Source: an uncultured Rickettsia sp.
Lineage (GTDB): Bacteria > Pseudomonadota > Alphaproteobacteria > Rickettsiales > JABSSG01
DNA length: 64,000 nucleotides
NCBI GenBank assembly: GCA_964515755.1
Contig: CAZEVK010000001.1
Location: 962 to 64,961, forward strand
Direction: 5' to 3'
The first letter of the stretch is position 1. Each line of letters opens with the position of its first letter. Shown here in pieces: positions 19,014 through 19,408 of this stretch. The notes under the pieces were generated by a model. It was not told where the DNA came from, did no database searches, and saw nothing but the letters and a program-made list of their open reading frames with translations. A program made the position numbers and the translations under genes.

Positions 19014-19042
19014 TTGACACTTTCATATTAATGTACTAGCAT
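19014..19042 (+). promoter_or_regulatory. Sigma70-type promoter of the trpR-like gene
   Basis: TTGACA (19014-19019), 17-nt spacer, TAGCAT (19037-19042). The -10 lies inside the operator palindrome. Confidence 0.45.
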
Positions 19043-19058
19043 ACTAGTACATTAATAT
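19025..19058. promoter_or_regulatory. TrpR-type operator: perfect 15-bp inverted repeat with core TGTACTAG-CATA-CTAGTACA
   Basis: ATATTAATGTACTAG cata CTAGTACATTAATAT. The core arms and 4-bp spacing equal the symmetrised E. coli trp operator TGTACTAG-TTAA-CTAGTACA. Confidence 0.7.
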
Positions 19059-19072
19059 AACTAGGAGGACAT

Positions 19073-19408
19073 ATGGAAGACGATCATCATAAAAGCATTT
19101 ATGATTTGTGCGAAGCCCTTCTACTTCTTGACACAAGAGATGAAGCATATAACTTTCTAAAAGATTTATGTACTCCGCAAGAATTACTGGCACTAGCCGA
19201 AAGATGGCGCGTTTGTAAATTACTTGAAAAGGGAAATCACTCTTATAGAGATATTCACACAATTACAAAAGCAAGCTTAACTACTATTGGTAGGGTAGCA
19301 AGATTTTTAAAAAATGAGCCATATCATGGCTATTTGACAATATTAAATAAAATAAGGAATAAAGAAAATGGTGAGCAACATAAATTACGCAACAAAAAAC
19401 TACTATGA
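19073..19408 (+). CDS. TrpR-related YerC/YecD family DNA-binding protein
   Basis: FLKDLCTPQELLALAERWRVCKLLEKGNHSYRDIHTITKASLTTIGRVARFLK aligns with the TrpR HTH region. RBS AGGAGG lies upstream. Confidence 0.8.
   Translation: MEDDHHKSIYDLCEALLLLDTRDEAYNFLKDLCTPQELLALAERWRVCKLLEKGNHSYRDIHTITKASLTTIGRVARFLKNEPYHGYLTILNKIRNKENGEQHKLRNKKLL

Follow-up and report, generated by a model that had tools for sequence, protein, structure and literature searches.

According to the consulted parts of Ashniev et al. (2022, BMC Genomics 23(Suppl 6):558, PMC9413887), YerC of B. subtilis and its orthologues constitute HisR, a histidine repressor of the TrpR family. For proteobacterial HisR, the motif is given there as TrpR-like, with the form TGTAnTArnnnnyTnTTACA in gamma- and alpha-proteobacteria. 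Histidine-dependent DNA binding is recorded in the same parts for the Ruminococcus gnavus HisR only (by fluorescence polarisation), a Firmicutes protein with a different motif.

Here, a regulator gene and its upstream palindrome were analysed in a 64,000-nt stretch (the window) of contig CAZEVK010000001.1 from an uncultured Rickettsia sp. Judging from sequence comparison, a small regulator of the Trp-repressor family almost certainly binds this palindrome, which has arms of 15 bp, at the promoter of its own gene. More specifically, we assign a probability of roughly 0.8 to the reading that the palindrome serves as the operator of a proteobacterial-type HisR controlling its own gene and hisX, with histidine as the probable co-repressor.

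A palindrome embedded in the hisR promoter

The inverted repeat at 19025–19058 (unstranded) is perfect, as an earlier note on this DNA had reported, and consists of two exact 15-bp arms, ATATTAATGTACTAG (19025–19039) and CTAGTACATTAATAT (19044–19058), around the 4-nt spacer CATA. It encloses the predicted 20-bp core of the HisR operator, TGTACTAGCATACTAGTACA (19032–19051, likewise unstranded), which reads TGTACTA-N6-TAGTACA or, written differently, GTACT-N8-AGTAC; in each arm, the 7 bp farthest from the centre form a weaker copy of the half-site, in 8-bp register with this core. A promoter search returned TTGACA-N17-TAGCAT as the top promoter-like site of the region (10/12 matches), with the –35 hexamer at 19014–19019 and, after a 17-bp spacer, the –10 hexamer at 19037–19042 (both on the + strand), the latter within the operator at its positions 6–11. 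The proposed overlap of repeat and –10 element was thus confirmed. Further downstream follow a ribosome-binding site, AGGAGG (19063–19068, + strand), and the hisR ATG at 19073. The repeat does lie just upstream of the start codon, at a true distance of 14 nt rather than the 15 nt given in the earlier note.

Being long, perfect and located in AT-rich intergenic DNA together with the divergent gatC promoter, the repeat might alternatively be a structural or mobile element: a cruciform, a member of a dispersed repeat family, or a hairpin or terminator in RNA serving the divergent gatCAB operon. We regard this as hardly credible. The sequence GTACTAG-N4-CTAGTAC is single-copy both in the window and in the whole 1.58-Mb genome, and matches with two mismatches numbered 4 per strand genome-wide compared to 8 per strand for a reversed-pattern control. 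A matrix scan, described below, found nothing else above chance either, which rules out the dispersed repeat family that the earlier note had named as the observation that would speak against an operator. The repeat has neither a G+C-rich stem nor a T-run, and a search for RNA elements (T-box, leader) near hisR found none, the sole Rfam match having an E-value of 0.91, far under the gathering score. Only the right arm is located downstream of the –10 hexamer, so the mRNA cannot form the hairpin. Moreover, the palindrome accompanies the regulator gene in several phyla, irrespective of the upstream neighbours. Perfect inverted repeats with 15-bp arms are restricted to three in 1.58 Mb, the hisR palindrome among them, and those with arms of at least 13 bp number 13 in the genome vs. 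0–1 in shuffled genomes.

To delineate the regulon, a symmetrised matrix derived from the homologous sites was run on the whole genome and on shuffled genomes. The hisR operator scored 29.3 bits, equal to the best training site, and the next genomic site reached 13.1 bits, below the top matches of the shuffled genomes. With a single high-scoring site, in agreement with the exact-pattern scan that the earlier note had suggested, the predicted regulon amounts to one operator and thus likely to one operon (hisR, two small ORFs and hisX). A search for further operators before the PF04392 paralogues of contigs C28 and C14 in this genome found none.

For comparison with homologous loci, one genome per species was scanned, which gave 584 relatives, and the best 80 loci were kept. 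An operator was counted when no more than two of the 12 specified positions of TGTAnTA-N6-TAnTACA were mismatched within at most 170 nt upstream of the gene. The window core itself fits this pattern with 0 mismatches. By this definition, 64 of 79 loci (from the best 80 of the 584 relatives) carried an operator upstream of the hisR homologue, vs. 64 of 1580 shuffled controls (4%). Examples include TTGACA...TGTACTATCATGCTAGTACA in Wohlfahrtiimonas, TGTACTAGTATAGTAGTACA in alphaproteobacterial and Rickettsiales metagenome-assembled genomes (MAGs), and TGTATTAGCACGCTAACACA in Hellea. The matrix of family sites has T, A, A and T at positions 6, 7, 10 and 11, so that positions 6–11 read TAnnAT and the –10 hexamer is part of the operator itself; in 33 of the 64 loci, a TTGACA-like hexamer (no more than one mismatch) lies 15–21 nt before the operator start, the spacing of operator and –35-like element being fixed. 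In a sister species, whose HisR is 86% identical, the intergenic spacer shows divergence, with insertions and deletions, and the –35 hexamer, the operator TGTACTAGTATGCTAGCACA and the ribosome-binding site have been kept. This retention amid a diverged spacer reads as a phylogenetic footprint. Together, the conservation in 64 of 79 homologous loci and the sister-species footprint strongly support an autoregulatory, promoter-occluding layout, and the parallel previously drawn to E. coli trpR autoregulation is upheld: an operator of the TrpR-family type (GNACT-N8-AGTNC) lies over the –10 element of the regulator's own promoter.

Five close homologues (L011, L013, L020, L021 and L009; 59–79% identical) had no recognisable TGTAnTA-N6-TAnTACA upstream (at least four mismatches), two of them being hisR-hisG-hisD loci; here, the motif may have diverged or the promoter may be more distant. 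A search with a 3-mismatch pattern, intended to define regulons in the genomes of five relatives, was discarded as too noisy, the controls giving more matches than the pattern, and all that could be used from it were the W. chitiniclastica sites with 0 mismatches and the best site in Hellea. Among genomes sampled from the genus, family and order, only 4 of 41 gave a hisR match, and of the three other genomes of the genus just one did. The hisR module is hence patchy among close relatives, yet widespread across distant host-associated lineages.

The flanks of the core follow a pattern of their own. Across the 64 homologous sites, they repeat the half-site with an 8-bp phase, as TGTAnTAn to the left and as nTAnTACA to the right, the diagnostic G or C being present in 53–56% of loci. 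In the window, these flanks are the degenerate copies ATATTA and TAATAT, and it is because of these half-site copies that the perfect arms extend to 15 bp. Sites shifted by +8 and –8 bp from the core scored 8.8 and 8.2 bits, respectively, and are among only 24 genomic matches above 8 bits, a score that stems in part from the 8-bp self-similarity of the motif. We therefore infer, and do not take as established, that several HisR dimers bind in tandem via the phased flanks.

Family assignment of the regulator and its probable ligand

The hisR gene (19073–19408, + strand) encodes a 111-aa repressor of the YerC/YecD type and is the sole PF01371 gene of the genome. Its assignment is based on curated HMM cut-offs and on gene context. 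The protein matches PF01371 (Trp_repressor) with 73.8 bits (cut-off 27) and passes TIGR02531, the model for YerC/YecD family TrpR-related proteins (61.5 bits; cut-off 42.2). It fails the TrpR equivalog model TIGR01321 (27.2 bits; cut-off 67.25). Of the earlier designation as a TrpR/YerC-family gene, the YerC part consequently stands and the TrpR part does not. In line with this, the best matches among solved structures were the YerC/HisR-type proteins 3FRW, 3G1C and 3KOR, at E-values of 1e-11 to 1e-13, compared to 0.01–0.1 for chains of E. coli TrpR; 3G1C is regarded as a HisR in the consulted parts of PMC9413887.

Gene context connects the family to histidine. Among the best 80 of the 584 relatives' loci, the gene directly downstream of the hisR homologue encodes a PF04392 binding protein orthologous to that of the window in 44 cases, and in relatives this gene is followed by a permease and an ATPase, giving a hisXYZ arrangement. 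In another 16 of these best 80 loci, hisR is directly followed by hisG, usually together with hisD. Regulators heading such hisG-hisD operons are 45–69% identical to the window HisR, two of the 16 reaching 69%. In W. chitiniclastica, the two perfect sites of the genome precede hisR-hisXYZ and, by 38 bp, hisG-hisD, and both are listed in the consulted part of the PMC9413887 supplement. In Hellea, the gene order is operator-hisR-hisG-hisD. We accordingly assign the window regulator to the proteobacterial branch of HisR, already described, and not to TrpR. The earlier label of a trp operator did not hold up, given a protein that fails the TrpR model and orthologues tied to his genes and histidine importers.

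A further eight of the best 80 loci, mostly from Dependentiae/Babeliales, have an SBP_bac_3 polar-amino-acid ABC importer after hisR. In these loci (L047, L050, L051, L053, L057, L058, L070 and L088), HisR and the operator are combined with the SBP_bac_3 system in place of the PF04392-type hisXYZ. Two further ORFs of ~220 and ~235 aa are found beside the binding protein and are probably the permease and ATPase of the importer.

Could the window nevertheless hold a true tryptophan system, with a regulator that senses L-tryptophan as E. coli TrpR does and a downstream substrate-binding protein (SBP) acting as a TrpX-type tryptophan importer? The core operator matches 19 of 20 positions of TGTAcTnGTnnACnAgTACA, the gamma-proteobacterial TrpR consensus as given in the consulted parts of PMC9413887, and the best NCBIfam match of the SBP is TrpX, at 249 bits. 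Residues equivalent to Thr44, Arg54, Thr81 and Arg84 of TrpR are invariant, and tryptophan import would be useful to a genome in which no trpB was found. However, the TrpX match stays below its cut-off of 390 bits, just as the regulator fails its TrpR model, and no trp genes were detected downstream of hisR homologues in the best 80 of the 584 loci, nor was any trp, aro or mtr linkage seen here or in any homologous locus examined. Orthologues instead head hisG-hisD operons, the same operator occurs before the his operon of W. chitiniclastica, and two tryptophan-pocket residues are replaced by invariant others (see below). A tryptophan system is therefore very improbable, notwithstanding the DNA motif, which by itself cannot separate HisR from TrpR.

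The biosynthetic repertoire is neutral in this respect. The genome is 100% complete by marker genes, and a whole-genome search detected no hisD, no hisG and no trpB (the trp gene check proposed in the earlier note) and no hisA/F above the cut-off. As it would make neither histidine nor tryptophan, the organism must import both, and pathway content cannot pick the ligand.

The residues of the protein bear on both DNA and ligand recognition. In the HMMER alignment, TrpR numbering runs 10 ahead of that of the window protein. Three TrpR residues that contact DNA according to the consulted parts of PMC9413887, Arg69, Thr81 and Arg84, align with R59, T71 and R74, all invariant in the HisR subfamily. 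The hisR operator thus resembles the E. coli trp operator because the HisR branch keeps the DNA-reading residues of TrpR. At the position of R59, HisR proteins of Firmicutes in the PDB carry Leu or Ala, which may be the source of the G in the present half-site vs. the TTTA of Firmicutes. At the tryptophan-pocket positions, the same alignment shows Thr44, Arg54, Thr81 and Arg84 of TrpR to be kept (as Thr34, Arg44, Thr71 and Arg74), whereas Gly85 and Ser88 are replaced by Val75 and Phe78, both invariant in the subfamily; all six aligned positions are invariant or nearly so across this subfamily. In addition, 29 core residues (including F28, D31–P35, E37, E43–W45, S57–R59, S68, T71, R74 and A76–L79) are equally conserved in hisG-linked, hisX-linked and SBP_bac_3-linked regulators, which argues for one orthologous group with one ligand. 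On the basis of this orthology and of the core residues shared with hisG-linked proteins, histidine is the probable co-repressor of the window HisR.

The N-terminal arm of the subfamily commonly reads M-E-D-D-H-H-K, its His pair corresponding to hisR codons 5–6 (19085–19090). Two adjacent His residues occur in the arm of 52 of 119 homologues (P0001–P0120 set), and His makes up 11% of the arm vs. 2.3% of the rest. Conceivably, the two codons could act as a second, translational histidine sensor alongside the operator. Scarce His-tRNA would then stall the ribosome just past initiation, block re-initiation on hisR and lower the amount of repressor, and the co-transcribed hisX, having its own start, would still be translated during the stall, so that histidine would be sensed twice (by operator and codons). 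We consider such a sensor improbable; alternatively, the His pair could be part of a DNA- or ligand-contacting N-terminal arm.

The hisR-hisX operon and its condition

In the histidine-repressor mechanism that we favor, a single HisR dimer or several, probably carrying L-histidine, would bind the 20-bp core and the weaker flanking half-sites 8 bp away. Because the core overlaps both the –10 hexamer and the probable transcription start (predicted near 19049–19051), RNA polymerase would be excluded by the bound repressor, with the silencing of a single transcript that comprises hisR, two small conserved ORFs and hisX. A drop in histidine would lead to release of the repressor and to transcription of the operon. 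Of these elements, HisR binding, histidine as ligand, multi-dimer binding and a HisX that still works are predictions drawn from sequence. The transcript would end at a strong bidirectional intrinsic terminator (20977–21000, + strand) with a 10-pair stem, seven G-C pairs and a subsequent T-run; between hisR and hisX, no terminator-like site was found on the + strand.

The first of the two small ORFs (76 aa, 19368–19598, + strand) overlaps the end of hisR and has a hydrophobic centre and no Pfam match. It was called in the sister species, too, and its substitutions by codon position (10/4/27 vs. 13/6/27 for hisR) reveal a clear coding pattern, like that of hisR. The second ORF (92 aa, 19717–19995, + strand) likewise lacks a Pfam match; its frame is open from ~19570, and one sister contig has an in-frame 15-nt insertion. 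Between the two ORFs (19599–19716), most substitutions are at third codon positions when read in the frame of the second ORF (4/1/7). A run of seven A residues (19572–19578) just before this open frame corresponds to AAAAAGA in the sister species, where the same two-frame layout is found, so the ORF split is not a one-off homopolymer error. Both ORFs lie in an insert of ~590 bp that is restricted to this genus-level group and shows 92% conservation with the sister species; most relatives have the hisX start no more than a few nucleotides from the hisR stop.

In the window, hisX is split between two frames. A signal peptide, MQKLIALLLSIIFITDISAFAAG (19997–20065, + strand), is followed by TGA and is out of frame with the mature domain (20055–20969, + strand), which matches the PF04392 ABC substrate-binding proteins with 245.6 bits. 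The window HisX is 53–70% identical to the binding proteins directly after hisR in the above 44 loci (among the best 80 of 584), including 53% to HisX of W. chitiniclastica. The window gene differs in length by 4 nt from its counterpart in the sister species, an intact 322-aa ORF. An intact call was also obtained for hisX of a 96%-identical metagenomic relative (P0001).

Orthologous hisYZ were not found in the genome, and no permease or ATPase gene follows the window hisX. The only permease/ATPase pair of this family is encoded on contig C28; it is 47–48% identical to HisY/HisZ of relatives and adjoins two SBPs that are only 31–32% identical to HisX, compared to the 69% shared by the window HisX with HisX proteins of relatives. 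As a whole, C28:2295–5743 encodes an entire ABC importer of the PF04392 type, including two binding proteins in tandem, and C14:1178–2101 encodes an orphan binding protein; neither has a HisR site. The genome thereby counts four binding proteins, HisX included, for one permease/ATPase pair. Either the orphan HisX uses the paralogous C28 permease, or the uptake system may be decaying.

With hisX frameshifted and hisYZ absent, the regulated cargo may be defunct. The locus could then be a decaying remnant in which repressor and operator are intact but transport is lost, and the site mostly autoregulates hisR and perhaps the two small ORFs. Apart from the split hisX and the merely paralogous transporter genes, the two genomes of the genus that yielded no hisR match point in this direction, as does the broken appearance of other nearby genes, such as ShlB (429 aa here vs. 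584 aa in relatives). The hisX frameshift could, however, be an assembly error, and closely related contigs keep an intact hisX in the same layout without hisYZ, so that HisX may function as an orphan together with the C28 permease. Moreover, the operator sequence is perfect, and its score equals that of the best training site. All considered, a remnant deserves some weight as an alternative but appears unlikely.

The ShlB/TpsB-type outer-membrane transporter gene lies at 21031–22785 on the minus strand and comprises the 429-aa reading frame plus a separate N-terminal ORF. In relatives, a 584-aa protein with a POTRA_2 domain was found in two cases, and in L091 the gene is split into 429 and 149 aa.

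Comparison with known TrpR-family systems

The biology of the window hisR locus itself is ordinary. Its analysis does correct a tempting mis-annotation, in that a near-perfect 'trp operator' beside a 'Trp repressor' gene is better read as a histidine-repressor module. It also extends the published HisR regulon to reduced, host-dependent lineages, including Rickettsiales-/Holosporales-like alphaproteobacteria, Dependentiae/Babeliales and Puniceicoccales MAGs, in which hisR and a histidine importer are among the few regulatory units responsive to amino acids that have been retained. With a protein of 111 aa and a DNA site of 34–36 bp, the repressor-operator pair is compact and directly testable, and is useful for asking how a TrpR-like DNA-reading head came to be linked with another ligand and whether the TrpR family generally binds in tandem in 8-bp register.

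With E. coli TrpR and the operators of trp, aroH and trpR, the window system shares the Pfam family, the fold, the GNACT-N8-AGTNC geometry and the –10 overlap with negative autoregulation, as well as the equivalents of Arg69, Thr81 and Arg84. The extra half-sites in 8-bp register likewise recall tandem TrpR dimers. Tandem binding of TrpR dimers was reportedly described by Lawson and Carey in 1993. Unlike E. coli TrpR, the window protein fails the equivalog model, has Val and Phe in place of Gly85 and Ser88, and belongs to a group of orthologues that regulate his genes.

The HisR operators of Firmicutes and Actinobacteria (cacTTTA-N6-TAAAgtg) resemble the present one in the regulator family and in the palindromic layout of 20 bp, and they often serve autoregulation and control of hisXYZ, but their half-site is TTTA, as opposed to GTAcTA here.

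The closest match is to the proteobacterial HisR systems in the consulted parts of PMC9413887, with the same family (TIGR02531), the same type of 20-bp palindrome and a site immediately upstream of hisR, the operon's leading gene. The hisR-hisXYZ arrangement is that of W. chitiniclastica, whose sites listed there, tgtactatcatggtagtaca and tgtactattatagtagtaca, differ from the window site only at central positions that vary across the family. The proteobacterial set of these parts comprises Legionella, Francisella, Xanthomonadales, Wohlfahrtiimonas, Rhodobacterales and Caulobacterales, and endosymbionts of Rickettsiales- or Holosporales-like type are absent from it; the consulted part of the supplement gave no matches for Holospora, Rickettsia, Odyssella or Hellea. 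Although a statement on 8-bp half-sites appears in the parts of PMC9413887 consulted, 8-bp-phased flanking half-sites are not described there for HisR and are a feature of the window and its homologues. Further differences from the proteobacterial systems in these parts are a genome devoid of his biosynthesis, the missing hisYZ, the frameshifted hisX, the two extra ORFs between hisR and hisX, and the one-site regulon. On these grounds, we place the window unit in the published HisR family, as a member of its TrpR-like proteobacterial branch residing in a reduced alphaproteobacterial genome.
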